A DNA stretch of 64,000 bases from Escherichia phage UPEC06: sequence record MW250786. One strand, written 5' to 3'. Below, one piece after another: positions 17,519 through 61,894 of this stretch. Under the pieces are notes generated by a model. That model saw only the letters and a list, made by a program, of their open reading frames with translations. It did no database searches and was not told where the DNA came from. Position numbers and translations under genes: made by a program. The number at the start of each line of letters is the position of its first letter. Position 1 is the first letter of the stretch.

Positions 17519-17974
17519 TTACCCCTGTTTAAGCTTAAAAGATTTAAAGGCTTCGATAAAGTCCATTTCTTTTTGCGTGTATTTGTGGTCAATTGTATCA
17601 GCGAAAAGAGGGCAACGACCATCAACCAACTTCACATCCCACAGATGTTGAGGGAGAATAAATGCAATGGCTGTAAGTGCACCATTCAAAGAATCATTCT
17701 CCTCGCAGAAAAATGCGTAAGGAATCTTCTCTATGTTTGGAGCTAAAAATCCTTCTGCAAAATTAAGCATCTTAGATTGATAGCCTCCGTTCAACAAGAT
17801 CATTGTTTGGTCTTTGCTTTGCCACTGATCTACAAGGTTGTATCTGTCATCATATCGATCGGCATAGGCAAAGCCATAATGACCTACAAGGTTTGCTGCT
17901 GCATGTGCTGCTTGGATACCTGCTTGGATTCCCATCATGTAGCTGTTTACCAATACGTACATCCGAGTTTTCAA
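17519..17974 (-). CDS. PTH2-like peptidyl-tRNA hydrolase fold protein (tentative)
   Basis: MGIQAGIQAAHAA resembles the PTH2 GK.AAQ..HA motif; NGALTAIAF resembles the second conserved segment. Confidence 0.4.
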   Translation of the reverse strand: MKTRMYVLVNSYMMGIQAGIQAAHAAANLVGHYGFAYADRYDDRYNLVDQWQSKDQTMILLNGGYQSKMLNFAEGFLAPNIEKIPYAFFCEENDSLNGALTAIAFILPQHLWDVKLVDGRCPLFADTIDHKYTQKEMDFIEAFKSFKLKQG

Positions 17975-18291
17975 TTCTTACCTCCGAAAATTCTTTTTGC
18001 AAATTTTTCATTACCTAACGTCATGTTGTAGAAAACTATAATTGAATAGACAATCCACGCAAGGACATAAAATAAAATCAAGAAAGGCCATCCCACAAAC
18101 CAAAACACTGTCATTATTAACCAGCCCGTCATAAGGAGTTTATAATTAACATTCCCGTGATTTAAAGGGTCAAGTAAGTTACTGTTCTCTGGCAGGGTGA
18201 TACGAAACCCACCTTGACGAAGCTTGATCAAAAAGAACCAAGCAGCAGAACTTATAATGCAACATAAAATATATATCAGTAATCCTGTCAT
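17971..18291 (-). CDS. membrane protein (tandem paralog 1; LIKLRQGGF motif)
   Basis: 106 aa, 3 hydrophobic helices; homologous to the adjacent gene. Confidence 0.55.
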   Translation of the reverse strand: MTGLLIYILCCIISSAAWFFLIKLRQGGFRITLPENSNLLDPLNHGNVNYKLLMTGWLIMTVFWFVGWPFLILFYVLAWIVYSIIVFYNMTLGNEKFAKRIFGGKN

Positions 18292-18617
18292 TTTTTAACT
18301 CCGAAGATCTTAGATAGTAATTTATCATTCCCGATAGTTACACCACAAAAACTTTTTACTCCGTATACTAGATACGACCCGATTGTAACACAGATAATGA
18401 TCGGATAAACAAGATACCAAAAGAATGTTGCAAGTATCCACCCTGCCATCACCATACGTAAATTTACATTTTCGTTATTCAGTGGTTCCAGGATATAAAT
18501 ATCCTCACAATCTTTTGGGAAGGGGATATTGAACCCCTTCTGCCGTAATTTAATCAATAAGAACCAAAGTGGACAACTGATCAAACAACCTATTAAATAA
18601 CCTTCAACCATTTTCAC
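18288..18617 (-). CDS. membrane protein (tandem paralog 2; LIKLRQKGF motif)
   Basis: 109 aa; homologous to the adjacent gene. Confidence 0.55.
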   Translation of the reverse strand: MKMVEGYLIGCLISCPLWFLLIKLRQKGFNIPFPKDCEDIYILEPLNNENVNLRMVMAGWILATFFWYLVYPIIICVTIGSYLVYGVKSFCGVTIGNDKLLSKIFGVKK

Positions 18618-19945
18618 TCTCCTTCAACTTGTCAAGGTATTGTGTAACGTATCTTACTTTTACATTTCTGATTCTGCTCTTGATCTCATCTGGACGTCCC
18701 GCAAATTTTTCAGAAATCTCTTTACTTTCTTTTGAGATTGCAACACTGTTCTGAATAATACCCGCCAGTGCTGAGAATAATACCAGTGGTTGACTGTAGT
18801 TGTCAAACATTTTTTCAGGTCCACGCCCACGAGCATCACAGATGCAAGCGTCCCGCCAGTGCTGAGAATAATACCAGTGGTTGACTGTAGTTGTCAAACA
18901 TTTTTTCAGGTCCACGCCCACGAGCATCACAGATGCAAGCGTCAATAAATTCAGAAAGGAATGCTTGGTCCTTTTCACCACGTAAGGCTACCAACAAGTC
19001 ATAAACTTTCTTCGGCTTCATCTCTTTAATACGGTGAAGTCGTGTATGGTGCTCGGTCACAGCTAAAGCTAACTTCTTCCAACTGTTGGGAACACCAAAC
19101 CGATCGCAAACTTGCTCAGTCAACTTGATACCATGTTCTTCATGCCCGTGTAACTTACCTGTAACCCAATAAATGCATTTCCCTAAGTCGTGACACAATA
19201 CTGCCCACTTTACAGCCTCACTTGCACGAATGGCTTGAGCATAATCCATACAAAGTAAAGTATGAACAAATGCGTCACCTTCTGGATGGTGTTCTTTAGG
19301 TTGAACAACATCATGCAAGTCAACAAGCTCAGGGAATTCACCAAGTTGAGTCAACATACGGATCATTACCGAAGGTTTATTCATCTCCGACTGATCACTG
19401 AAGCATTTCTTAATCTCTGCAAATTTACGCTCTTTTGGAAGTGCACTTAAATCTGCATTTTGGCACATTAACCAAGTTATAGAGTCAATTATAAACTCTC
19501 CACCATATCTGGCGTAAAGTCTTGCTAGTCGGTATACACGTAAGGGGTCTTCGATAAATGCCTTAATAGATACACAACGTAACCGACGATTTTCAATATC
19601 AAGTGCACCACCGCAAGGGTCAATAATTTCACCCGTAGAAAGATCCTTAGCAATAGCATTAATGGTCAAATCTCTTCGCATCAGATCTTGCTCGATTGTA
19701 ACGTCTGGAGAGAACACAACCTCAAAGTCGTGATAACCAGGTCCTGTTGACCTTTCTGTCCTAGCAAGAGCATACTCTTCCTTTGTCTCGGGGTGAAGGT
19801 ATACAGGAAAAGCTGCACCAACTTGAGTGAATCCCTTTTCAATCATTTCTTCATGGGTCGCCCCAACTACAACGTAGTCACGATCCTTGCTTTCAACACC
19901 CATTAGTTCATCCCTCACTTGCCCACCAACAGCATATATTTTCAT
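18604..19945 (-). pseudogene. cca: tRNA nucleotidyltransferase (CCA-adding enzyme, class II, HD domain), reading frame broken by the 91-bp duplication
   Basis: N-terminal GGQVRDELMG..DRD motif; the two ORF-track ORFs (18836-19975 and 18604-18981) share the peptide ACICDARGRGPEKMFDNYSQPLVLFSALAG; removing one repeat copy restores one ~426-aa ORF. Confidence 0.6.
18761..18942. repeat. Exact tandem direct duplication of a 91-bp unit (18761-18851 and 18852-18942) inside the CCA-adding enzyme gene
   Basis: Read directly: identical 91-nt strings back to back; 91 is not a multiple of 3. Confidence 0.9.
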
Positions 19946-20280
19946 ACTCTTTCCCCTCTTAAGTTTAAAGACCAATCTTTTATTTCTTCTTTCCAGTTTG
20001 TATTTCTCTTAATGTCTTGCTTTTGACCACGAAGATAGTTGATGATTTCAAGCGGGTCTTGCTTAACAAAAGAAATATTATCGATCGGACACTCAACTAA
20101 CTTAAGCATCCTTTCAAAACGATTATACTCATCTTCTGACTTCGGTGCAACAGGAATAATATCATAATCTTCAAGATTGTCGAGAGTTTCAAGAGTTTCA
20201 AGAGTAACCTTCATCTCATAGCCTTCTAATCTCTTTGTCTTGATACCAAACACTCTTCGAAAGTAAATGTAATATTTCAT
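19942..20280 (-). CDS. hypothetical protein
   Basis: ATG at 20280 with an AGGAGAA RBS; ATGA overlap with the cca start. Confidence 0.5.
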   Translation of the reverse strand: MKYYIYFRRVFGIKTKRLEGYEMKVTLETLETLDNLEDYDIIPVAPKSEDEYNRFERMLKLVECPIDNISFVKQDPLEIINYLRGQKQDIKRNTNWKEEIKDWSLNLRGERV

Positions 20281-20332: not shown

Positions 20333-20362
20333 ACAAAAAAGGCCACCCGAAGGTGACCTTTA
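20333..20362 (-). terminator. Intrinsic terminator (aggtcacc-ttcg-ggtggcct plus U-run); same sequence as the plus-strand terminator at 61192-61221 in reverse orientation
   Basis: Hairpin plus A-run on the plus strand; reverse complement of 61193-61221. Confidence 0.65.
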
Positions 20363-20365
20363 AAT

Positions 20366-20875
20366 TTAAGGGTGAATCCAGTAAAAAGGTTTTGTTAAAC
20401 CAAGCTTACCTTTTTTATCCCAAATAAAATAACCGTATGCTGCACCATCTGTTTTACCATCGTCAGTAAAAGAGGGTCGCTTAGATAAAGTAACCAAGTG
20501 ATCAACAGGATATTCCTTCCAGAACTCAACACGTTTGGTACTCTCAAGGAAACCTAAACGAAGAAGCATGATCACCACATCAGCGTCCTTGTGGGCCTTC
20601 TCCACAAACTCTTGAGCTAAATTGTAAGGTGGATTAGTTAACACACAATCTACCTTGTTGTATTCAGTCGCAAGATAATCAACACCTGCTTGAATCTCAG
20701 CCCAAGCTGAACCAATCGGCATTTCATTATAAAAACGCCCAGAGGCTCTGCAAGGTTCCAGATAAGTCCAATCCTGACGGATCGGAACTAAATTCAAGAA
20801 AGCATCCACTGCCCACTTCGGAGTTTCATAACGATCATTTTCACGGCGTTCTGCTTTAGGTTTCAGTGCAGCCAC
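20366..20875 (-). CDS. DNA N6-adenine methyltransferase (small phage Dam-like)
   Basis: YETPKWAV and TNPPY motifs; 169 aa. Confidence 0.65.
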   Translation of the reverse strand: MAALKPKAERRENDRYETPKWAVDAFLNLVPIRQDWTYLEPCRASGRFYNEMPIGSAWAEIQAGVDYLATEYNKVDCVLTNPPYNLAQEFVEKAHKDADVVIMLLRLGFLESTKRVEFWKEYPVDHLVTLSKRPSFTDDGKTDGAAYGYFIWDKKGKLGLTKPFYWIHP

Positions 20876-20877
20876 TA

Positions 20878-21723
20878 TTATTTTCCCCCTTCTTTCGCCG
20901 CAGTGATGATCTGTTCAATCAACTCGTCGCGATAATAAACGTACTGTTCAACACCAAAACATTCCGCAATCTCGTCTAGTTCGTCGAGGTTGTACTCGTC
21001 AAAGTCTCGTGGGTTAAGAGTAAAGATGTTGAATTTTTTGGCGTAGCCTTCGTCGAGGACGATTTCAAACTCTCCTTCTCCGATTTCTTTCGCATCATCA
21101 ACATCACCCGATTCGATTGCCCCTTCAACCTTAATCCCCCCTGTATTTTGTTGATCGGCTTCCATTTGCTTTTTAATTGCTTCATCTTCAGCGGTCAGAC
21201 GGGCTTGCATCTGAGAGGAAGTAAAGTAAATTTCGCCAGCACGATCAAACAGTTCAACGAGTTCATCTTCTGTCATAACACCCTTGTACAGATCGTAGTA
21301 TTTCTCTTTGAACAGGTCTTTGTAGAAATCGCTACGTTTAAATACCAGTGCCGAGTCACCGCCCATACTCATCTGAACGTTGTGGAACATGTAATGAGAA
21401 CCTGGACGACAAATTCGAACATGACCGGATAAGAAGATCATTGTTGCAGCACTTGCCACTTCACCAATACCGTGTGTTACAACAGTCGCCTTTGTTTCAG
21501 AGATCGCTGTCATGTACATATCGGCGATATCACAATAACCACCACAAGAAGTAATGTACAGATTTACAATATCACCTTCAGGTGCTGAACGAATCAGGTC
21601 AACAGCCTCGATATGTGCTTCAGGTGAATTGTGCAGATCCGTAACATAAATACGCCAATCGTTAGAAGTTACTGGAGACACCCAAATGTTTTTTGCCGGA
21701 CCATTCATTACGATTTCTTCCAT
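20878..21723 (-). CDS. ClpP-like serine protease (S14 fold) with an acidic C-terminal extension
   Basis: Colinear with ClpP: TSCGG (cf. NSPGG), GEVASAATMIFLSG (cf. GQAASMGAFLL), MFHNV (cf. MIHQP). Confidence 0.6.
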   Translation of the reverse strand: MEEIVMNGPAKNIWVSPVTSNDWRIYVTDLHNSPEAHIEAVDLIRSAPEGDIVNLYITSCGGYCDIADMYMTAISETKATVVTHGIGEVASAATMIFLSGHVRICRPGSHYMFHNVQMSMGGDSALVFKRSDFYKDLFKEKYYDLYKGVMTEDELVELFDRAGEIYFTSSQMQARLTAEDEAIKKQMEADQQNTGGIKVEGAIESGDVDDAKEIGEGEFEIVLDEGYAKKFNIFTLNPRDFDEYNLDELDEIAECFGVEQYVYYRDELIEQIITAAKEGGK

Positions 21724-21735
21724 ATTAATTCCCCC

Positions 21736-22206
21736 TTAGCTAATTAAAGTACGGATGCGGGTAGCGTTTTGCAGAACCCAGTCTACTACGACAGAATGAT
21801 CAGAATCAACAATTACTTCATGATGACGTTTGAACATATCAAGAATCTTTGCTGCTTCGGCAGTGTAAAGTGCCGCACGATCTAAAAAGATAATCTGCTC
21901 TTTAAGTTCTTCCGTGATTGGACATAACTTACTTGGGACCTCAATGGCTGATAAATGCTCTATCAACTCCGCTCTGGTAGAGAACATAATATCAACTTCC
22001 TGATCGATACTAAGAGAGCCTAAGAATAAGCGAGAAAACCATCCACGATACTCATCGTTGTTTTTACGCAAAGTCTTAATTCCAAATCTTAACTCTTCGA
22101 ACAGAGCTGTTGCAATTTCTTCAATACGATCAGGAACAATAGCCCCACAATTTTTCAATTCCATCAGTTTACGATGATCAACTGTTGCGTACATACCCTT
22201 ATCCAT
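21736..22206 (-). CDS. hypothetical protein
   Basis: 156-aa ORF. Confidence 0.5.
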   Translation of the reverse strand: MDKGMYATVDHRKLMELKNCGAIVPDRIEEIATALFEELRFGIKTLRKNNDEYRGWFSRLFLGSLSIDQEVDIMFSTRAELIEHLSAIEVPSKLCPITEELKEQIIFLDRAALYTAEAAKILDMFKRHHEVIVDSDHSVVVDWVLQNATRIRTLIS

Positions 22207-22214
22207 ATCACCCC

Positions 22215-22532
22215 TTAAATTCCGATTAAATATTTAAACTTCCCGTCGTTCTCTGCGATCTTGTGGATTACATAGAACCAATTTTCAATTCCATCTTCAT
22301 CTTCCTCTTTCACACGATCACCAGTTTTCAACTCAACCTCGGAAACGTACTCCTTACTTTCAAGAAAATACTTCCACTGAACCATGTCTTTAAAATTACA
22401 GATTAGTTTATTTTTGCCATCTGTCGTCCAAAGGTCCTGATTGACCCACATACCAACAACGAAATTCTTTTCTTTTTTAGGACGACCAAGTGCATAAGTG
22501 TTGTTTAACATCTTTGCTTTATCTAAGACCAC
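22215..22532 (-). CDS. hypothetical protein
   Basis: 105-aa ORF. Confidence 0.5.
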   Translation of the reverse strand: MVLDKAKMLNNTYALGRPKKEKNFVVGMWVNQDLWTTDGKNKLICNFKDMVQWKYFLESKEYVSEVELKTGDRVKEEDEDGIENWFYVIHKIAENDGKFKYLIGI

Positions 22533-23250
22533 GTTTTGACTCCAAGTTAACTAAGAAATTCTCAAGCACTGTGATGTTGTCTTCTTTCCAAAGATTAAGT
22601 GTTCTTACTCCACTCTTCTTTGCAAGATTGACTGCTGTAGCAGTGCCACCCTTGGGATTGCCCGTTCTTGTTTCCTTTGCGTAGTATATCACAAATTTAC
22701 TTTGCATCAAGTATGCATTTGAAAGATTTTTACCAAAAATCTGGTGTACGTTTCTTTCGTGCAACTTCCTTGCTCCCTGACTCAACTTATCCCAACCACC
22801 ATGAACTTCTTTCACCCAATCCCAACGCATCTCTTTATGCTGTGGGAAATCTTTGTCGATTTCATTCAGAGAGATATTATACAGGTCCTTAAGTCCCTGT
22901 CCACCTTTAAAGTTATTCCAAGGAACATATATCTCTGCAAGTCTACTCGGTGATTGGGTCATATTACAATCTTCATGAAACCTCTGCATACCCCTTTGGA
23001 ATGCTGCATCTGCGCCACCTGCACCACCAGATCGTAATGTGTACCCAACTCTTGCTAATCTCCAACCTGCATCTTCCATAATTTTTAATATTTCTTCAGG
23101 AGTCTCCCTTGAACCTATTCCTGTATAAGCTGGCACTTTAACCTCCTTCATCTTCAGTTGACCAGTACCCATTAACTTTTTTCCAAAGTCTTTGGTTATC
23201 TGATCCCCTGAATCTTTTAGTTGTAGGTTTGTTTTCATCATACTTGCCAT
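22519..23250 (-). CDS. DprA/Smf-like (SLOG-type Rossmann) domain protein; start uncertain
   Basis: GIGSRETP...LRSGGAGGADAAFQRG matches the DprA GSR...SGxAxGxDxxAxxG pattern. Confidence 0.4.
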   Translation of the reverse strand: MASMMKTNLQLKDSGDQITKDFGKKLMGTGQLKMKEVKVPAYTGIGSRETPEEILKIMEDAGWRLARVGYTLRSGGAGGADAAFQRGMQRFHEDCNMTQSPSRLAEIYVPWNNFKGGQGLKDLYNISLNEIDKDFPQHKEMRWDWVKEVHGGWDKLSQGARKLHERNVHQIFGKNLSNAYLMQSKFVIYYAKETRTGNPKGGTATAVNLAKKSGVRTLNLWKEDNITVLENFLVNLESKRGLR

Positions 23251-25697: not shown

Positions 25698-26444
25698 TTA
25701 ATTACCTCCTTTAAGATCCTTTTCACGAGCCTTGACAACTGCCTTACAGAATGGACTACGAACGATTTCTTCACTAGTCGCTTCAACATAATCGGCAAAG
25801 TCGTAAAGTTCATGACGATCAATGAATTCGATTGCCCATTCTAATCCAGTTTCACGATTACGCATATCGTTCTGTGTGATATCGCCTAAGCAGAACAGCT
25901 TAGAACTTTCACCTTTACGAGTCATGATCGTGTAAGCCGTATCTTCATCTGTGTTCTGAAACTCATCGACAATAACAACCGCATTATCGAAAGAACGCCC
26001 ACGGATATATTCCAGAGGAACAAATTCAATGTTACCACAACCCAACTGAGTTTCAAAGAAACCGTGACCGTAGCGTTGATGAATAACCTGAATAAGTGCC
26101 TGAAGGAAAGGCTCGAATTTCTCACGGATAGTCCCAGGTAGTAACCCGAGACTGTTCCCCATTCCCAATGTTGGTCGAGTAAGGACGATCTTTTCAATCT
26201 TACCTTGCTTCAGCCAATCAATAACGGTACTCATAATGACAAATGTCTTACCTGTACCCGCCGGAGCGTTAACGAAAACAACTTCCTTCTCGTTAACCAG
26301 AGATAACAATTCCTTTTGGAATCGGTTCTTTGGAGTAATAGGTTTTTTCAACTCTTCATAGGCTTTAGGTGTTACCTGACGGCCTTTTGAACGCTTCTCT
26401 TCACGACGATCCTGACGAGATTTACGATTAGTATGACGTTGCAT
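25698..26444 (-). CDS. phoH: PhoH-like ATPase
   Basis: Walker A VNAPAGTGKTF; 248 aa. Confidence 0.75.
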   Translation of the reverse strand: MQRHTNRKSRQDRREEKRSKGRQVTPKAYEELKKPITPKNRFQKELLSLVNEKEVVFVNAPAGTGKTFVIMSTVIDWLKQGKIEKIVLTRPTLGMGNSLGLLPGTIREKFEPFLQALIQVIHQRYGHGFFETQLGCGNIEFVPLEYIRGRSFDNAVVIVDEFQNTDEDTAYTIMTRKGESSKLFCLGDITQNDMRNRETGLEWAIEFIDRHELYDFADYVEATSEEIVRSPFCKAVVKAREKDLKGGN

Positions 26445-52317: not shown

Positions 52318-52392
52318 GGCCCTGTAGCTGGACGGTTCAAGCAAGCGACTCATAATCGCCAGACGGTGGTTCGATTCCACCCAGGGCCACCA
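52318..52392 (+). tRNA. tRNA-Met (anticodon CAT; could be initiator, elongator or Ile-lysidine type)
   Basis: Acceptor ggccctg/cagggcc, anticodon loop ctCATaa, T-arm ggtgg-ttcgatt-ccacc, discriminator A, encoded CCA. Confidence 0.7.
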
Positions 52393-52525
52393 TATGAAGT
52401 CGGGTCGCTCCCGATAAGTCGTCGGACTGATGTTCCCTGACTACGAGTTCCCTCAACGATAACGACGTAGATCACAGCAGAAACGGCGCACCCTATTTCA
52501 TTTCTTAATACATTTCAATAAGTTC

Positions 52526-52554
52526 TTGACATAATCCTATTATACTGCTAATAT
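52526..52554 (+). promoter_or_regulatory. Sigma70-type promoter: -35 TTGACA, 17-bp spacer, -10 TAATAT
   Basis: TTGACA at 52526-52531 and TAATAT at 52549-52554. Confidence 0.6.
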
Positions 52555-52581
52555 AGTTATATCTACTGAATTGAGGTGTTT

Positions 52582-52956
52582 ATGGCTAAAGCTGAAATCG
52601 TTACTCGAAAACGCGGTCGGCCTACTACAGAGGAAAGCATTGCAATCAATACTGAGAGAGCAATTCTTCATGCTCGTTCCGAGTTTGCAAGACTTACTCC
52701 TCAAGCAATTAAAACTCTGGAAGGTCTACTGACTTCCGGTACAGAGAAAGTTAAAGAAACTACTGCGAAGTATATTCTTGAGCAAGCTGAAAAGGCAAAC
52801 AATCTGTACACGATGGAAGATAATGAAGAGGATCTGGCAGGAGGAACTACTTCTGCAAATTCAGAAACTCATCAAGGCCCTTCTGACGCATTTAAGGATG
52901 CTATTCCATTAACTACTCAGATTCGTGAGTATAAAATGGCAGAAGGTGAAGATTAA
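52582..52956 (+). CDS. small basic-N-terminus, acidic-C-terminus protein; possible DNA-binding protein or terminase small subunit
   Basis: ATG at 52582 with a GAGG RBS; KRGRPT motif; function not established. Confidence 0.5.
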   Translation: MAKAEIVTRKRGRPTTEESIAINTERAILHARSEFARLTPQAIKTLEGLLTSGTEKVKETTAKYILEQAEKANNLYTMEDNEEDLAGGTTSANSETHQGPSDAFKDAIPLTTQIREYKMAEGED

Positions 52957-52976
52957 GGCTCGCAAGGGCCTTTATT
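52955..52976 (+). terminator. Possible terminator hairpin (GCAA tetraloop) after the 52582-52956 gene
   Basis: Stem aaggctc/gggcctt with gcaa loop followed by tttatt. Confidence 0.35.
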
Positions 52977-53210
52977 AAGAAGTTTTCTTTAAGGTAGTTC
53001 TTACTTTAGCAGAGTAAATCTTCGGCAAGTGGCGGTAACCACTTTACCGATACCTCATAGTTAGTGTTGCGAACACTGGCTACCTTAAAGAGAATTTAAC
53101 TCGTCGAATAAGGAAGATGCTGATCTCAAAGTGAGGTTACTTACCGCAAGGGGTGTGCATAGACTCCCGCTTCCGAATAGACTATGTGGCGAGATGTATT
53201 TGGGGACGTA

Positions 53211-53561
53211 ATGAATAATAAAGACCAAGGTAATGCAGGAGAGGCGTTTGCCATCTATCATTACACCTCATCAGGCCACAAGGTGTCAAAGCCGTTGTTT
53301 GAAAACTGCCCATACGACCTTATCGTTGATAAAGACGGTTGTTTGTTAAGGGTACAAGTTAAAACATCGCGTGTCAAAGCGCCAAGTGGAAGGTATGAGG
53401 TTTCTTTGAGGACCAACGGTGGTAACCGAAGTGGTATAGGAAAGAGCAAAAATATCTCAAGCTCGGAAGTAGACCTACTTTTCGTTCTTATTGAAGACGG
53501 GAGGTATTTTGAAATCCCTTGCTCAGAGGTAGATGGTCAGACTTGCGTGACCGTAGGATAA
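53211..53561 (+). CDS. restriction-endonuclease-like (PD-(D/E)XK-type) nuclease, possible homing endonuclease inside the tRNA island
   Basis: GEAF..YDLIVDKDG..RVQVKTS resembles E...PD...(E/Q)VK; ATG at 53211 with a GGGGA RBS. Confidence 0.35.
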   Translation: MNNKDQGNAGEAFAIYHYTSSGHKVSKPLFENCPYDLIVDKDGCLLRVQVKTSRVKAPSGRYEVSLRTNGGNRSGIGKSKNISSSEVDLLFVLIEDGRYFEIPCSEVDGQTCVTVG

Positions 53562-53562
53562 G

Positions 53563-53649
53563 GCATTGTTAGACCGTAGGGGTAGCGGGGCAGACTGTAA
53601 ATCTGCTGTTCATAGAACTCGGGTGGTTCGACTCCATCACAATGCACCA
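53563..53649 (+). tRNA. tRNA-Tyr (anticodon GTA), type II with a long variable arm
   Basis: Acceptor gcattgt/acaatgc, anticodon arm gcaga-ctGTAaa-tctgc, 15-nt variable arm, T-arm ggtgg-ttcgact-ccatc, discriminator A, CCA. Confidence 0.65.
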
Positions 53650-53652
53650 AAT

Positions 53653-53727
53653 TTTCCGTTAGGCTTATAGGATAAGATTCCCGCAACGTCTCGTTGTGAT
53701 ACTGGTTCGAATCCAGTACGGAAACCA
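53653..53727 (+). tRNA. tRNA-like element: perfect acceptor stem and T-arm, no canonical anticodon arm
   Basis: tttccgt/acggaaa acceptor and actgg-ttcgaat-ccagt T-arm; the middle does not fold into a standard D/anticodon arm by eye. Confidence 0.3.
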
Positions 53728-53733
53728 AATTAA

Positions 53734-53815
53734 TGTGCGGGTAACATAATTGTCACGGTGGCAAGCTGGCCTCCAAAACCAGTCGTAAGGAGTTCGACTC
53801 TTCACCTTCACGCCA
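53734..53815 (+). tRNA. tRNA-like element, possibly tRNA-Trp (CCA anticodon loop ctCCAaa) with an over-long D region
   Basis: Acceptor gtgcggg/ccttcac (1 mismatch), anticodon-like loop ctccaaa, T-loop ttcgact, discriminator G, CCA; 82 nt. Confidence 0.35.
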
Positions 53816-53819
53816 AATA

Positions 53820-53896
53820 CGGTGTATAGCGCAACTTGGTAGCGCGAATGCTTTGGGAGCATTAGGTTCGAGGTTCAAATCCTCGTACACCGACCA
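53820..53896 (+). tRNA. tRNA-Pro (anticodon TGG)
   Basis: Cloverleaf folded by eye: C1-G72, D-arm gcgc/gcgc, anticodon arm aatgc-ttTGGga-gcatt, T-arm cgagg-ttcaaat-cctcg, discriminator A, CCA. Confidence 0.75.
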
Positions 53897-53901
53897 AATA
53901 T

Positions 53902-53977
53902 GCGGGTATAGCTCAGTTGGTAGAGCTTCTGATTTCCAATCAGAATGTCACGAGTTCGAGTCTCGTTATCCGCTCCA
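53902..53977 (+). tRNA. tRNA-Gly (anticodon TCC)
   Basis: gcgggta acceptor, D-arm gctc-agttggta-gagc, anticodon arm tctga-ttTCCaa-tcaga, T-arm acgag-ttcgagt-ctcgt, discriminator U, CCA. Confidence 0.8.
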
Positions 53978-53985
53978 AACAAAAA

Positions 53986-54060
53986 TGGGGATTAGCCAAG
54001 CGGTAAGGCATTGGATTTTGATTCCAACATTCACTGGTTCGAGTCCAGTATCCCCAGCCA
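53986..54060 (+). tRNA. tRNA-Gln (anticodon TTG)
   Basis: U1-A72 acceptor tggggat/atcccca, anticodon arm ttgga-ttTTGat-tccaa, T-arm actgg-ttcgagt-ccagt, discriminator G, CCA. Confidence 0.75.
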
Positions 54061-56439: not shown

Positions 56440-57972
56440 TTGAAGAAGAAGAATAAAGGTCGCAACACACAGGTTCGTAAAGCGACGAGCGAAGAATTAA
56501 ACGTTGCTCGTTTACGAATGAGTGAGCAAGGTACTTTTGCTTTAGCTAAGGTTCAGGTAGAAACTGAACGCATGAAAGCTGAAGAAATTAAATGGCCTCA
56601 ATTGATCGGTACAGTTGAAGCTATGAAACAAGATGCTACGGTAGCGACTGGTCTTGATATGCTTTACACTTTCGTAGAGAAAGCATTCAAGGACTTCAAA
56701 GTAATCCCTGGCAAATCTAAAGAGTCTCAAGACGCAGCAGAGTTCATTACCTTCTGCCTTCGTAACATGGAAGGTCAAACCCTGCGTCAATTTGCCCGTG
56801 ACGCTGCCACATTTAACGAATACGGCATCTCTGTAGTTGAGAAGGTATATACTCAGATCCAGACTGGTGAATATGCAGGACGATTTAAGATTAAAAACCT
56901 TGCATTCCGTCCACAGGCTTCTCTGAGTCGTAAAAACCCTCTCGTGTACAGCGATGATGGTTCTCGTGTTATCGGTGTTAAACAGTCACTTGATTCTTTC
57001 AAGAACTACACAGATAGTCCACTTGGTGCTTCTATGAGTGGCCTGACTGGTTCTCGTAGAGGGAATGATGTTGTTATTCCAGCAAACAAGCTGATGATCA
57101 TGACGACTGGCGGTTCTTCTTCTCAAGCGCTCGGCGTTTCTCCGCTGGTTGCTTGTTACCGACCTTGGCGTGAAAAAGTTCTTATCGAGAACCTTGAAGT
57201 TGTTGGTGCTACGAAAGACATGGGTGGTGTTATCGAACTGAAGATTCCTTCTGCTATTCTTAACAAAGCAGCTATCGACCCTTCCAGTTACGAAGCTGAG
57301 ATGGTTCAAGGTCTAATGATGGATGCCGCAAACGCCCACTCAGGCGAGCAATCTTTCTTTATGTTACCGTCTGACGTTAAAGATAACTCACCCCTGTATT
57401 CAATGTCTCTGAAGGGCATTGACGGTATGGGTAAACAGTACAGTACTCGTGACCTGATCAGTGATCGTAAAAAATCAATCCTTGATCGTCTGGGCGCGGG
57501 ATTCCTGAACGTAGGTAATGATGCCTCTGGTTCATACAACCTGTCGGAATCAAAACAAACTATCCATACTCAATTTGTACAACGTGTTAATGAAATTATC
57601 GCTGAAGCACTGAATGAAAACCTGCTCCCTCAGCTTCTGGCTCTGAACGGTATTCGTCTGGCAGAAAAAGAAATGCCATTCGTTAAATTTGGTCAGATCG
57701 TTGATACAGACATGGAAGGTTTCTCTAAAGCGGTTCAGCGTATGGGTGCTGTCGGCTACTTGCCTAAGACACCGGAAGTTATTAATCGCATTCTTGATGT
57801 TCTTGGAATCGATTATCAAGTTGGTGAAGATATTTCGCAAGAAGAACTTATGCTTCTCCTTGGAGATAATACCAGTCGTTCTGGCGATGGCTTTGCACAG
57901 GGGACTTCTGGAAACGGGACTGCAAAGATTAGCGGAACAAGAGATAATTCAGTTTCTAATTTAGAAAATTGA
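56440..57972 (+). CDS. portal protein
   Basis: 510 aa; TTG start with a GAGGGG RBS; position between terminase and head genes. Confidence 0.7.
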   Translation: MKKKNKGRNTQVRKATSEELNVARLRMSEQGTFALAKVQVETERMKAEEIKWPQLIGTVEAMKQDATVATGLDMLYTFVEKAFKDFKVIPGKSKESQDAAEFITFCLRNMEGQTLRQFARDAATFNEYGISVVEKVYTQIQTGEYAGRFKIKNLAFRPQASLSRKNPLVYSDDGSRVIGVKQSLDSFKNYTDSPLGASMSGLTGSRRGNDVVIPANKLMIMTTGGSSSQALGVSPLVACYRPWREKVLIENLEVVGATKDMGGVIELKIPSAILNKAAIDPSSYEAEMVQGLMMDAANAHSGEQSFFMLPSDVKDNSPLYSMSLKGIDGMGKQYSTRDLISDRKKSILDRLGAGFLNVGNDASGSYNLSESKQTIHTQFVQRVNEIIAEALNENLLPQLLALNGIRLAEKEMPFVKFGQIVDTDMEGFSKAVQRMGAVGYLPKTPEVINRILDVLGIDYQVGEDISQEELMLLLGDNTSRSGDGFAQGTSGNGTAKISGTRDNSVSNLEN

Positions 57973-58038
57973 TCTTTGATTTAAATCAGACTCTTGCAAA
58001 ACGAATCGTTCAGTGTTAAAATAAATATCACGGGAGCA

Positions 58039-58611
58039 ATGATGGAAAACATTACTATCTCCGACCTTCCTTCACAAACCTATCTGTCCCGAATCCAAAA
58101 GGGACGGGCTGTGAAAAAGGCCAATGAGCTACTTAAACAGGGCTTCAATAAAGAGGCTTCTATTTCTGGAGCCATTGGCTCCGTTCTTGTCCAAAAAGCT
58201 GCACAGAAAGAAGAGATGATTTCTTACGAGATCATTTACGAACCTGATACGCCGGATGCTCATGGACAATGGATGAGCAAAGAGACACTAGTTAAAGCAC
58301 AGCAAGATTTCAAGAAAGCTCAAGAAATCGGTGCGGTAACTGAGAACTTGTACCACTTGGTTGATACCGAAGCATTCAAGATCGTAGATCATTGGATTCA
58401 GCCAGAAATTGATGTAACTGTCACACAAACAGGAGAAATCATAAAAGCAGGGTCATGGGTAGCAAAGGTTCAATATTCACCTGAAGCATGGGAGTTAAAG
58501 AAAGCTGGCATCGTCGGTGGATTATCTCTTCAGTGCGGTGGTATGTTGAATGAGGAAACAAATGAGCTATCCGATCTTGATTTCAGTATCGAATTGGAAG
58601 AGGAAGAATAA
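58039..58611 (+). CDS. head morphogenesis protein, putative XkdF-like prohead protease
   Basis: YEPDTPDAHGQWMSKETLVKAQQDF resembles the XkdF-family EPD..D..G motif; sits between portal and scaffold. Confidence 0.4.
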   Translation: MMENITISDLPSQTYLSRIQKGRAVKKANELLKQGFNKEASISGAIGSVLVQKAAQKEEMISYEIIYEPDTPDAHGQWMSKETLVKAQQDFKKAQEIGAVTENLYHLVDTEAFKIVDHWIQPEIDVTVTQTGEIIKAGSWVAKVQYSPEAWELKKAGIVGGLSLQCGGMLNEETNELSDLDFSIELEEEE

Positions 58612-59705
58612 TGATTAAGACCCTTATAGAGAAAGGTCGCCAGATTAAATCTCGCGGAATTGCTCTAACTCACCGAGATCAAGGCTACAGTGCGAACAAT
58701 CGACACGTAAGCCTCCTCACTAAATCTGACATTGACCCAAGCAAACTGACGGTTGATGTTATCAAAGCTCTTGAGCAAGTTCAAGTAACTATCAGTATGG
58801 AAGAGTTCTTACGTCGCTTCTTCCACATGTATTACGATGATGCAGAGTTACTTACTAAGCTGATGGGCTTCACAACTACCTTTGAAGACGAATACGCGGA
58901 TAAAGACCCTGAAGACTTGGATTCTTATACTGCTGATTACGTTAAACGTCATCAAGAATATCTCGATGAAAAACTCGAAACTATCTCCATTATCAAAAAA
59001 GCAAAAGAAGGTGAAGATCTTTCCCTGATCGAACGCTTTGAGTTAATTAAGACTCGTAAGCAATTCGAAGACGGTTGTAAAGAATTAGCTTTGGATTTTG
59101 GTGATGAATCTGAATTACGCAAACCAGAAACTGGTGAAGTAGTTAAATCAGCTACTAAGCCTGAACCTGTAAGCTCCGCTGGAGCGACCACAACCATCAA
59201 GGAGACTCCTGTGGAAAAAGAAGTAGATGTAACCAAGTCCCAACAATTCATTGATCTGATGAAAGCTAATGAAGCGTTGATGGCTCAGGTTGAAGGTATG
59301 AAAGAAACCTTCACCGCTGCTCAAGAAATCGTTAAAGCTCAGGCTGTTGCAAAACGTGAAGTTGCCTTGAACAAAGCTGCAAGTTTTGGTTTTGTTGCTG
59401 ATGACCAACGTGAAGCTGTTGCTGACCTGATCGAAGACCCAGCTAAAGCATCTGTTGTTGCTGTGCTGGAAAAAGCTGCTGCTGCTCTTAAAGAGAAAGA
59501 CGAAGCTCTCGTCGCTAAAGATGCAGAAATCGAAGAGATCAAAAAATCCTTCGCTGACGGCAAAGAAGTAGGTGCTGATGGTCAACTGACTGAAGTTGCT
59601 AAAGGCTCTGAAGACGCTCAGGCTCGTTTGAACCGAGTAATCGCAGAACGTGCAGCAGAGATCGCTAAGGCTGCTAACGGCAATGCTGAATTTATTAACG
59701 CCTAA
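58611..59705 (+). CDS. scaffolding protein
   Basis: 364 aa; Ala/Glu/Lys-rich predicted coiled coil; upstream of decoration and capsid genes. Confidence 0.65.
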   Translation: MIKTLIEKGRQIKSRGIALTHRDQGYSANNRHVSLLTKSDIDPSKLTVDVIKALEQVQVTISMEEFLRRFFHMYYDDAELLTKLMGFTTTFEDEYADKDPEDLDSYTADYVKRHQEYLDEKLETISIIKKAKEGEDLSLIERFELIKTRKQFEDGCKELALDFGDESELRKPETGEVVKSATKPEPVSSAGATTTIKETPVEKEVDVTKSQQFIDLMKANEALMAQVEGMKETFTAAQEIVKAQAVAKREVALNKAASFGFVADDQREAVADLIEDPAKASVVAVLEKAAAALKEKDEALVAKDAEIEEIKKSFADGKEVGADGQLTEVAKGSEDAQARLNRVIAERAAEIAKAANGNAEFINA

Positions 59706-59725: not shown

Positions 59726-60157
59726 ATGGCTAAAGCACATGTTGTAACTCTCGAAGGTAACTACTCTGATATCGTACTGGGCCGTGTTGTTGCATTTGGT
59801 GACACTGGTTGGAACTTTGAAGAAGTAGAAATGGATTATACTGCTGATCTGGTCGCAGGTCTGCTGGTTAAAGCTGATGGTACTCCGGCTGCTGTTGCAG
59901 ACGCTGCTGACGTTTACGGTGTTCTGGTTGACCGTAAAGTTCTGCCTGGTGTTACCAAGCATGACGGCGCTACCCCGATGGCTGGTGAGAAGCTTCCTAT
60001 GACTATCGCTGTTCGTGGTCTGACCCTGAACGCAACCAAACTGGTCTACGCTGACGGTACTGCAATTGACGATGCTGGTCGCCTGGCTCTGTCTAAAGCT
60101 GGTAACCAAGTAACTGATCGTGTAGTAGCTACCGAATTCCTCGGCGCTGTCCTGTAA
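59726..60157 (+). CDS. head decoration protein
   Basis: 143 aa, immediately upstream of the major capsid gene (lambda D/E-like order); strong codon bias. Confidence 0.5.
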   Translation: MAKAHVVTLEGNYSDIVLGRVVAFGDTGWNFEEVEMDYTADLVAGLLVKADGTPAAVADAADVYGVLVDRKVLPGVTKHDGATPMAGEKLPMTIAVRGLTLNATKLVYADGTAIDDAGRLALSKAGNQVTDRVVATEFLGAVL

Positions 60158-60180: not shown

Positions 60181-61176
60181 ATGCAAAATGGTGATTTTCA
60201 AATCCTGGATTACACTGGCCTGATCTCTACTCTGCCGCGTGTTGATACCCTGCTTCAAAGCATGAACCTGTTCACTGAGAACTTTGGTCGTACTACTATC
60301 GCTAAAATCGAACGTCGTGATGACGGTGCTGGTCAGATCAATGCTGTACAGCGTGGTAGCGTTCGTCAGCACCTGGGTAATGATCGTAAAAAGATCGTCA
60401 ACCTGAATATCCCGTTCTTCCCTCTGGACCGTTCTATCGACCGTGCAGACATTCAGAACTTCCGTGAATTCGGTACTGACAACGCTCCGGCAACTGTTGA
60501 AGCTGAAGTGGCTCGTCACCTTGCTAGAATTCGTCGCAGTCATGCAGTTCTGAAGTCTAAAGCAATGTACGCTGCTCTGAAAGGTACTTCCTGGTCGCCA
60601 AATGATCCGGTTTGTGATTACGACTACTACGATGTTTGGGGTGTAACCCAGCAGACTGCTGACGTTGACTTCACCGCTCTGGCTATTGACCCGATTGAAG
60701 TGCTGGAAGCTGAAGCTCGTGCACACATCATCGATTACGCTGGTGACCAAGGTGACAACTACGAGATCGTCGTTATGGCATCCCGTCAGTGGTTCTCTGC
60801 TCTGATCGCTCACCCGCAGGTAACTGGTGCATATTCTCAGTACCCTTCTACTCAGGAAGTCCTGCGTCGTCGTCTGGGCGGTAATGCCAACAACCGTATC
60901 TTCGAACACAAGAACATCCTGTTCATCGAAGACATTTCCGGTAACATCCCTGCTGGTGAAGCATACATCTTCCCTCGTGGTATCGATCGTATGTTCGAAA
61001 TCTATTACGCGCCGAGCGACACTCTGGAAGGTGCTAACCAAGTAGCTCAGGAACTGTATGTATTCTTCAAAGAATCTCAGTACCTGCGTGAAGCGAAGAT
61101 CGAATCTGAAACTTCCTTCCTGACTGTTAACAACCGTCCTGAACTGGTAGTTAAGTCTGTTGGTAAGTTTGAATAA
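60181..61176 (+). CDS. major capsid protein (lambda gpE-like)
   Basis: 331 aa; strong codon bias; GAAGGAG RBS; strong terminator directly after; head-module position. Confidence 0.75.
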   Translation: MQNGDFQILDYTGLISTLPRVDTLLQSMNLFTENFGRTTIAKIERRDDGAGQINAVQRGSVRQHLGNDRKKIVNLNIPFFPLDRSIDRADIQNFREFGTDNAPATVEAEVARHLARIRRSHAVLKSKAMYAALKGTSWSPNDPVCDYDYYDVWGVTQQTADVDFTALAIDPIEVLEAEARAHIIDYAGDQGDNYEIVVMASRQWFSALIAHPQVTGAYSQYPSTQEVLRRRLGGNANNRIFEHKNILFIEDISGNIPAGEAYIFPRGIDRMFEIYYAPSDTLEGANQVAQELYVFFKESQYLREAKIESETSFLTVNNRPELVVKSVGKFE

Positions 61177-61300: not shown

Positions 61301-61894
61301 ATGTCTAAGCAAACTCACTTGGAAATTTTTAAAAGTGAATATCACATGCTCAAGTTCTTCGGTGAATATCTAGAAAAGCTTGATGTAAACACCTCTGCAC
61401 GTTTAGGTGCATTCCTTTACAGCTACGACGGAAAACTAGTCCTTGCCCGTGGCCTTTATGATTTTCTAACTCAAATGGAAAAGATGACCGCTCTCGGTAT
61501 CGACACCCTTGCTTCTGTGCAAAAAGGTACAAGTTTCCTAGTATTCTTTAAAGAGAAGCCTAAAGATCCTTTAAAATTCCGTTTGGATGTTAAGAAAATT
61601 GAGGCTGTCAAAGAAGCCATTGTTACTGATACTCCAACTAAGGTAATGGAAGAGTCTGTACTTGTCAACACTAAAGTTGAAGAAGTTAAAGAAGTTGAAG
61701 TAAAGGAAGAATTAACTGCTCGTACTGAAGAAGAAAAATCTCAGATCTTAGCCAAGGCTGAAGAACTGCGTGACGACAGCAAAAAGTCTGCATCTAAGGC
61801 GGCATTGGAAGCTTTCGCTGTGGAATACGGCATTTCACTGAGCAAAGGTAAAACCTTTGATGGGATGCTTGAAGATTTAGCTGCTGCACTTTAA
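61301..61894 (+). CDS. hypothetical protein (Lys/Glu-rich middle region)
   Basis: 197 aa; GAAGGAG RBS. Confidence 0.55.
   Translation: MSKQTHLEIFKSEYHMLKFFGEYLEKLDVNTSARLGAFLYSYDGKLVLARGLYDFLTQMEKMTALGIDTLASVQKGTSFLVFFKEKPKDPLKFRLDVKKIEAVKEAIVTDTPTKVMEESVLVNTKVEEVKEVEVKEELTARTEEEKSQILAKAEELRDDSKKSASKAALEAFAVEYGISLSKGKTFDGMLEDLAAAL

Follow-up and report, generated by a model that had tools for sequence, protein, structure and literature searches.

The stretch of Escherichia phage UPEC06 analysed here (sequence record MW250786; 64,000 nucleotides, hereafter the window) comes from a Vequintavirinae (rV5-like) phage; an 8-kb comparison with phages A73 and W70 gives ~96% DNA identity. The window contains two predicted protease genes: one for a 281-residue ClpP-like protein at 20878-21723 on the minus strand, and one of the XkdF type in the head module, ~36 kb away on the opposite strand. 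An earlier note had placed the ClpP-like frame at exactly these coordinates, among early genes away from the head module, had recognised in its product a ClpP catalytic core and an acidic C-terminal extension, had listed an XkdF-like candidate in the head module, and had concluded that either the phage has two proteases or one assignment is wrong. Its individual observations are borne out below, and of its two outcomes only the first survives: the idea of a wrong assignment is rejected, both genes passing the tests of profile, of fold or motif, and of synteny. The two-protease arrangement is not an oddity.

The ClpP-like gene starts with ATG, has a ribosome-binding site (GGGGGA) 7 nt upstream, and is separated by 12 nt from the preceding gene and by 2 nt from the next. 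Its product carries the motifs TSCGG at residue 58, VASAA at residue 89 (with Ser91) and MFHNV at residue 112 (with His114). The Pfam CLP_protease model (PF00574) matches residues 51-122 only, at 33.1 bits against a cut-off of 20.2, and PHROG 5410, annotated 'ATP-dependent protease', matches at full length (E=3.6e-77, residues 11-278 against profile positions 17-312 of 323); the short-form PHROG 1827 matches at 1.8e-35. A profile built from 39 homologues (alignment A1, the basis of all 39-sequence counts given here) reaches ClpP structures in the PDB with E values down to 3.9e-10, and hhalign aligns it to E. coli ClpP with a probability of 94.6%. The AlphaFold2 monomer model has a mean predicted local distance difference test score (pLDDT) of 81, with ~90 in the core and less than 50 over residues 1-17, and with this model Foldseek retrieves dozens of ClpP structures at probability 1.0 over ~160 aligned columns (target template modelling score 0.6-0.73). 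The similarity to ClpP is far beyond chance, and the Peptidase_S14 check that the earlier note had proposed supports the ClpP fold, with the catalytic Ser and His in alignment.

Four residues of the putative active site, G61, G62, S91 and H114, are invariant in 39/39 sequences and are also present in T5, ICP1 and other distant copies. The third member of the triad is more variable. In a hidden Markov model (HMM) alignment to PDB 2f6i, Glu164 falls at the position of the catalytic Asp171; we took the equivalence from this alignment, as a further one (A3), made with MAFFT, placed the C-terminal half of E. coli ClpP wrongly. Position 164 is E in 36 of the 39 homologues and D in the remaining 3, while among wider relatives it is Q in Mydovirus, Seunavirus and Henunavirus (KNP2, PVP-SE1) and N in T5. 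Because E, Q, D and N all occur at this site, the protein, judged by alignment, is best described as a predicted Ser/His peptidase with a variable third residue. Between the window and A73, the gene shows 16 synonymous and 2 non-synonymous codon differences (ratio of non-synonymous to synonymous rates, dN/dS, 0.03), and both amino-acid replacements fall in a disordered linker that follows the core. The gene is under strong purifying selection. The comparison with the Certrevirus orthologue was left unused, dS being saturated (>2).

The protein departs from cellular ClpP where ATPases would bind. All NCBIfam ClpP models score far under their cut-offs (TIGR00493, 12.5 against 308.6; PRK00277, 24.1 against 249). 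Only 21 residues precede strand β1, with no helix before it in the AlphaFold2 monomer model, and on this model helix αA, which carries R22 and L23 in ClpP, is missing. Clp ATPases bind ClpP through IGF loops that dock in a hydrophobic pocket (PMC9753991), and the E. coli ClpP residues of this ADEP/IGF-loop pocket have been listed (bioRxiv 10.1101/2023.03.01.530711). We transferred these residues by means of the hhalign alignment and tallied their counterparts across the 39 family members. V28 is replaced by R in 37/39 sequences, Y60 by E in 31/39 (N in the window copy), F82 by D or E in 38/39 and I90 by R in 31/39 (H in the window copy), and L114 is replaced by D, E or R in the family; F49 falls in an alignment gap, and R22, L23 and L189 are without an aligned counterpart. 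As a positive control, the same alignment pairs S97 with S91 and H122 with H114 in 39/39. This mapping argues that the hydrophobic pocket for ClpX, ClpA or ADEP has been replaced by charged residues throughout the ClpP-like family. With the docking pocket apparently charged and helix αA absent from the model, the label 'ATP-dependent' is doubtful.

The closest relatives are themselves phage proteins. Phage 'Clp protease' models in BFVD match structurally with E values down to 8.5e-20, cellular ClpP only at ~1e-8. After the two PHROGs of the family itself, the next sequence relatives are ClpP-related head-maturation proteases: phrog_1684 (3.9e-17) and NF045542 ('Clp_rel_HeadMat'), for which nearly the whole model is covered but the score is 31.9 bits against a cut-off of 120. 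The family, made up of PHROG 5410 (long form) and PHROG 1827 (short form), comprises 1,142 phage records, including T5-like phages, ICP1, and Klebsiella and Vibrio phages; named members are rV5 gp117, PVP-SE1 gp151, ICP1 gp211 and ORF45 of T5/BF23. The window protein is 99% identical to the copies in phages A73 and LTH01. In A73 the gene is labelled 'hypothetical protein', whereas UniRef and sister genera give 'ATP-dependent Clp protease proteolytic subunit', and the PVP-SE1 annotation cites rV5 gp117. A literature search on phage non-structural ClpP-like proteins returned annotations and one statement in the BF23 study, whose authors write of the Clp protease ORF45 that its function 'is currently unknown' (PMC10644984).

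The head-module gene is, by sequence, a solid XkdF/Peptidase_S78_2 prohead protease. With the Peptidase_S78_2 model its product scores 56.5 bits (cut-off 24) over profile positions 5-120 of 126, and its motifs DAHG (H90), NLxH (H121) and GLS (S178) are invariant in five very divergent XkdF-type orthologues; several records already name the gene prohead protease. It occupies the prohead-protease slot in the gene order terminase, portal, protease, scaffold, decoration, capsid, which is common to ICP1, Vequintavirus, Pakpunavirus and Justusliebigvirus; in ICP1 the head cluster runs from gp128 to gp122, with gp125 annotated 'capsid protease'. The start of the frame is uncertain within 57994-58200: the TTG at 57994 comes from the list of open reading frames (ORFs) only, and the earlier note had used 58039. 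Pairs of a prohead protease, XkdF-type or other, with a separate ClpP-like gene recur, as gp125 with gp211 in ICP1 and as ORF164 with ORF45 in BF23. Such a layout is the norm in several groups of large lytic phages and has been annotated before in Vequintavirinae, T5-like phages and ICP1; it is not new.

The C-terminal extension of the ClpP-like protein consists of an acidic linker and a second domain, both negatively charged, in keeping with the earlier note. The second domain is folded and very acidic, made of a β-hairpin and a helix-extended-helix (HeH) fold; the extension is more than an acidic tail. Residues G226, K229, F241, E243, E248 and E251 of this domain are near-invariant, and its 66 residues include 18 Asp/Glu against 6 Lys/Arg (pI 4.05, net charge -12). 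The Pfam Rho_N model stays below threshold on it (17.8 against 24.9 bits, in the window copy only). When 1.84 billion representative proteins were searched exhaustively with a profile of this domain, only 15 matched: every full-length match was the C-terminus of a ClpP-like protein, and partial matches were proteins with several HeH units, carrying genuine Rho_N, SAP or HeH domains. The notion of a widespread module is rejected on this ground, the full domain occurring only on ClpP-like proteins. HeH domains that bind nucleic acids are usually basic. The net charge of -12 and pI of 4.05 speak against nucleic-acid binding and for protein docking, so that DNA binding in the manner of SAP or Rho_N was set aside and the domain more likely docks on a protein. 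A second HeH-like C-terminus occurs in the same genome, there in the head module: the 197-residue ORF at 61301-61894 (plus strand; phrog_3259), just past the major capsid gene, has ~45 HeH-like residues at its end (…ALEAFAVEYGISLSKGKTFDGMLEDLAAAL), and this tail weakly matches phrog_1051, 'minor head protein inhibitor of protease' (E=1.7e-5).

The ClpP-like gene belongs to a minus-strand block that extends from ~1 to 49 kb and holds replication and nucleotide-metabolism genes, among them PhoH, NrdD/NrdG, a DprA-like gene, a Dam methyltransferase and a CCA-adding enzyme; the plus-strand terminase/head module begins at 54.9 kb. The local order is PhoH, NrdD, NrdG, DprA-like, phrog_5456, phrog_7224, ClpP-like and Dam methyltransferase, with a strong terminator-like hairpin at the end (Table 1). 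Given the gap of 2 nt, the ClpP-like and methyltransferase genes are probably co-transcribed. A scan for sigma-70 promoters was uninformative (32 sites found against 23 expected). The five genes from DprA-like to methyltransferase are kept together in Certrevirus, Mydovirus, Seunavirus, Avunavirus, Henunavirus and unclassified members.

Table 1. Features of the ClpP-like locus and of the head module, in window coordinates
Feature	Coordinates	Strand	Basis or remark
ClpP-like serine peptidase gene, 281 residues, PHROG 5410 family	20878..21723	-	Profile and Foldseek matches
N-terminal 21 residues of the ClpP-like protein	21661..21723	-	Family-conserved sequence; no structure in the model, no αA counterpart
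ClpP-fold core, residues 22-185, with handle helix 124-147	21169..21660	-	AlphaFold2 pLDDT ~90; Foldseek ClpP matches
Ser91 codon, predicted nucleophile (VASAA), equivalent to E. coli ClpP Ser97	21451..21453	-	Invariant 39/39
His114 codon (MFHNV), equivalent to ClpP His122	21382..21384	-	Invariant 39/39
Glu164 codon, at the ClpP Asp171 position	21232..21234	-	Alignment to PDB 2f6i
Acidic linker, residues 186-215, predicted disordered, length variable in A1	21079..21168	-	Residues 195-215 pLDDT <50; net charge -6
C-terminal domain, residues 216-281: β-hairpin, short helix, HeH (Rho_N/SAP/LEM-like)	20881..21078	-	Net charge -12
DprA-like gene (phrog_768), first of the conserved five-gene block	22519..23136	-	GTG start as in the A73 annotation
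phrog_5456 gene, 105 residues, part of the conserved block	22215..22532	-	Profile match and synteny
phrog_7224 gene, 156 residues, conserved upstream gene	21736..22206	-	12-nt gap to the ClpP-like gene
Dam-type DNA N6-adenine methyltransferase	20366..20875	-	Starts 2 nt past the ClpP-like stop codon
Intrinsic-terminator-like hairpin, 10 bp stem and T run, ending the unit after the methyltransferase gene	20338..20361	-	Sequence
Portal protein (Mu-type)	56440..57972	+	Profile match
XkdF-type (Peptidase_S78_2) prohead protease; H90, H121, S178 invariant	57994..58611	+	56.5 bits against a cut-off of 24
Scaffold-position protein, phrog_2970	58611..59705	+	ICP1 gene in the same slot annotated scaffold
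Head decoration protein, phrog_2680	59726..60157	+	Profile match
Major capsid protein, Phage_cap_E family (lambda-E-type)	60181..61176	+	Profile match

Within this block, phrog_7224 stands out by its association with the ClpP-like gene. It is present in 102 phage records, against 99 with the long ClpP-like form, and adjoins the ClpP-like gene in all seven genomes checked. In Salmonella phage SSBI34 (L005, 2441-3787) the two genes form a single in-frame coding sequence of 448 residues through loss of a stop codon, with an internal ribosome-binding site and ATG retained; this is a single genome, in which a sequencing error is possible. From the constant adjacency, the near-equal record counts and the SSBI34 fusion, the phrog_7224 product emerges as a candidate partner of the long-form ClpP-like protein. 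It has no significant match in PDB, Pfam or NCBIfam, and the PADLOC defence models match neither the ClpP-like gene nor its two upstream neighbours. A phrog_7224 partnership in ICP1, T5 or Vibrio demerecviruses is rejected: in ICP1, gp209 is an HNH endonuclease and gp210 belongs to another family, and the neighbour in 234P1 is unrelated. Outside the subfamily, the ClpP-like gene neighbours a deoxynucleoside monophosphate kinase and a holin in T5, and PhoH, an HNH endonuclease and a small ORF in ICP1. Both the β-hairpin/HeH domain and the phrog_7224 neighbour are specific to the Vequintavirinae long form.

Two further regularities of the neighbourhood were observed. In Vequintavirinae (25698-26444 of the window, minus strand) as in the unrelated ICP1 (gp208; L009, 1202-2014), the ClpP-like gene has a PhoH-like ATPase gene a short way upstream, at a distance of a few genes. 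HNH endonuclease genes adjoin the ClpP-like gene in Klebsiella phage KNP2 (L003, 5840-6514), where one lies between the ClpP-like and methyltransferase genes, and in ICP1, where gp209 is directly upstream; homing endonucleases seem to target this neighbourhood repeatedly.

Taken together, we favour, with a probability of about 0.6, the reading that the window gene encodes a non-structural ClpP-fold serine peptidase of a phage-confined family, separate from the XkdF-type capsid protease, with the following assembly and targeting included. The protein would probably form rings that enclose the active sites, as ClpP does, and would probably work without host ClpX or ClpA, since the IGF-loop pocket appears charged and helix αA is missing from the model; such ATPase-free working would resemble that of the ClpP-related prohead proteases of phages. 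As a further step, the acidic β-hairpin/HeH domain, held on a flexible linker, may select the substrate or the location by docking on a protein, possibly the phrog_7224 product, and the enzyme would cleave selected phage or host proteins, or peptides, in the middle period of infection. In ICP1, the XkdF-type gp125 and the capsid cluster are late, and nucleotide-metabolism genes within gp176-gp211 peak earlier, at 12 min (PMC7567579).

Several points weigh against this reading. The case for oligomeric state, catalytic activity and substrates alike is inferential, and we found no experiment on a family member. The pocket mapping is a profile alignment at ~20% identity combined with a monomer model, and a non-canonical ATPase interface is possible. 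Some relatives have Gln or Asn as the third triad residue, and catalytic efficiency may be low or assembly-dependent. The mid-infection timing draws only on gene position and on the parallel with ICP1. The nearest profile relatives beyond the family's own PHROGs are head-maturation proteases, and ORF45 of BF23 was detected in purified virions by 3 peptides, at ~4% of the prohead-protease signal (~25x weaker; PMC10644984), which hints at some association with the capsid.

The last two points bear on an alternative in which the ClpP-like protein is a second virion or procapsid protease, or a displaced former prohead protease, packaged through its C-terminal domain and cleaving proteins of the virion interior, of ejection or of the tail in place of the major capsid protein. 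C-terminal extensions for targeting or scaffolding are common among ClpP-related prohead proteases, and the head-module ORF at 61301-61894 ends in an HeH-like C-terminus as well; the next-best profiles (phrog_1684 and NF045542) and the BF23 peptides point the same way. The gene, however, lies far from the head module, on the other strand and within a DNA-metabolism unit, a context that holds in Vequintavirinae, T5 and ICP1, while the head module has a conserved protease of its own; the BF23 signal is far below that of the prohead protease, and NF045542 falls well short of its cut-off. We regard a structural role as unlikely.

Still less probable is a true ClpP substitute, whose rings, alone or mixed with host ClpP, would dock host ClpX or ClpA and redirect ATP-dependent proteolysis. 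ClpP fold, Ser/His pair and handle helix are present, Pfam CLP_protease scores above threshold, the conserved N-terminal 21 residues could form axial loops in an oligomer, and a PhoH-like ATPase gene is found nearby in Vequintavirinae and ICP1, though PhoH is not an AAA+ unfoldase. Against this stand five of the mappable IGF/ADEP pocket residues, which are charged or polar family-wide, with F49 deleted, the absence of αA, the low NCBIfam ClpP scores and a structure much closer to phage proteins (E 1e-20) than to cellular ClpP (1e-8). There is, lastly, only a very slim chance that the protein is a catalytically weak or dead decoy that sequesters a partner, such as a host factor bound through the acidic HeH domain. 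The variable third triad position (E/Q/D/N) would suit a decoy, and the acidic C-terminal domain could mimic a nucleic-acid or protein ligand, but Ser91, His114 and the G61-G62 pair of the oxyanion region are invariant in all sequences examined and purifying selection is strong, as is typical of active enzymes.

A more specific version of the non-structural peptidase reading can be put forward as speculation that we consider rather unlikely: the Vequintavirinae long form would be a self-contained proteolytic machine without an unfoldase, a ClpP-like chamber whose docking site for ClpX/ClpA has been lost, aimed by the β-hairpin/HeH domain and phrog_7224 and acting in mid-infection. If this were true, candidate targets would be host DNA-associated, defence or stress proteins, or phage regulators, and the label 'ATP-dependent Clp protease subunit' would be functionally wrong on more than 1,000 phage genomes. 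As a genome feature the gene is routine: the family has been annotated since phage rV5, and a near-identical gene is already in GenBank. It nonetheless points to a gap in knowledge, around a protease that is conserved and under strong selection in more than 1,000 phage genomes, T5 and ICP1 included. The standard name of this protease, which implies a partnership with ClpX or ClpA, is probably misleading, and identifying its substrates could bring to light a proteolytic step in the takeover of the host or the regulation of the phage.

Three other features of the window deserve mention. The CCA tRNA nucleotidyltransferase gene (18604-19975, minus strand) contains a perfect 91-nt tandem duplication (18761-18851 and 18852-18942) which, 91 not being a multiple of 3, frameshifts it into ORFs of 379 and 125 residues. 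The duplication is absent from A73, and in silico removal of one copy restores an ORF of 427 residues, the last 140 of which differ from A73 at one position (S/N); it reflects either a genuine inactivating mutation of recent origin or an error of assembly. Two overlapping minus-strand ORFs of 106 and 109 residues (17971-18291 and 18288-18617) have clearly related hydrophobic sequences (…FLIKLRQ(G/K)GF…) and look like a tandem duplication of a small membrane-protein gene. Between the replication block and the terminase/head module, a plus-strand cluster at 52318-54060 holds five tRNA genes (Met, Tyr, Pro, Gly, Gln).

Compared with known systems, the head-module enzyme resembles XkdF/Peptidase_S78_2 proteases and ICP1 gp125 in its above-threshold Pfam score, its slot between portal and scaffold, and its DAHG, NLxH and GLS motifs; it differs from the 139-residue Vequintavirus version in a lineage-specific N-terminal extension of ~60 residues. 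The ClpP-like protein shares with cellular ClpP (MEROPS S14; E. coli ClpP, PDB 1TYF/1YG6) the fold, the Ser/His positions, an acidic residue at the Asp171 position and the handle helix, but at ~15-22% identity it has Glu for Asp, lacks αA, has an apparently charged pocket, and carries an extra 96 residues of linker plus domain. With the ClpP-related head-maturation proteases (NF045542; PHROG 1684, 94 and 26628) it has in common a phage ClpP-fold Ser protease core without a dedicated unfoldase and, as in many of them, a C-terminal extension; in contrast to them, its gene lies outside the head module, where the corresponding slot holds the XkdF-type protease. Its C-terminal domain departs from HeH, SAP, LEM and Rho_N domains in the preceding β-hairpin, in its net charge of -12 and in its sub-threshold Rho_N score. 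The closest likeness is to the non-structural Clp family of PHROG 5410/1827, of which the window gene is a member by its core, its Ser/His pair and its early/middle gene position, and which likewise co-exists with a separate prohead protease. From the family it differs in nothing essential. The C-terminal domain is missing from the T5 copy, and ICP1 gp211 and the Vibrio demerecvirus copy have long C-terminal extensions that align poorly with it.

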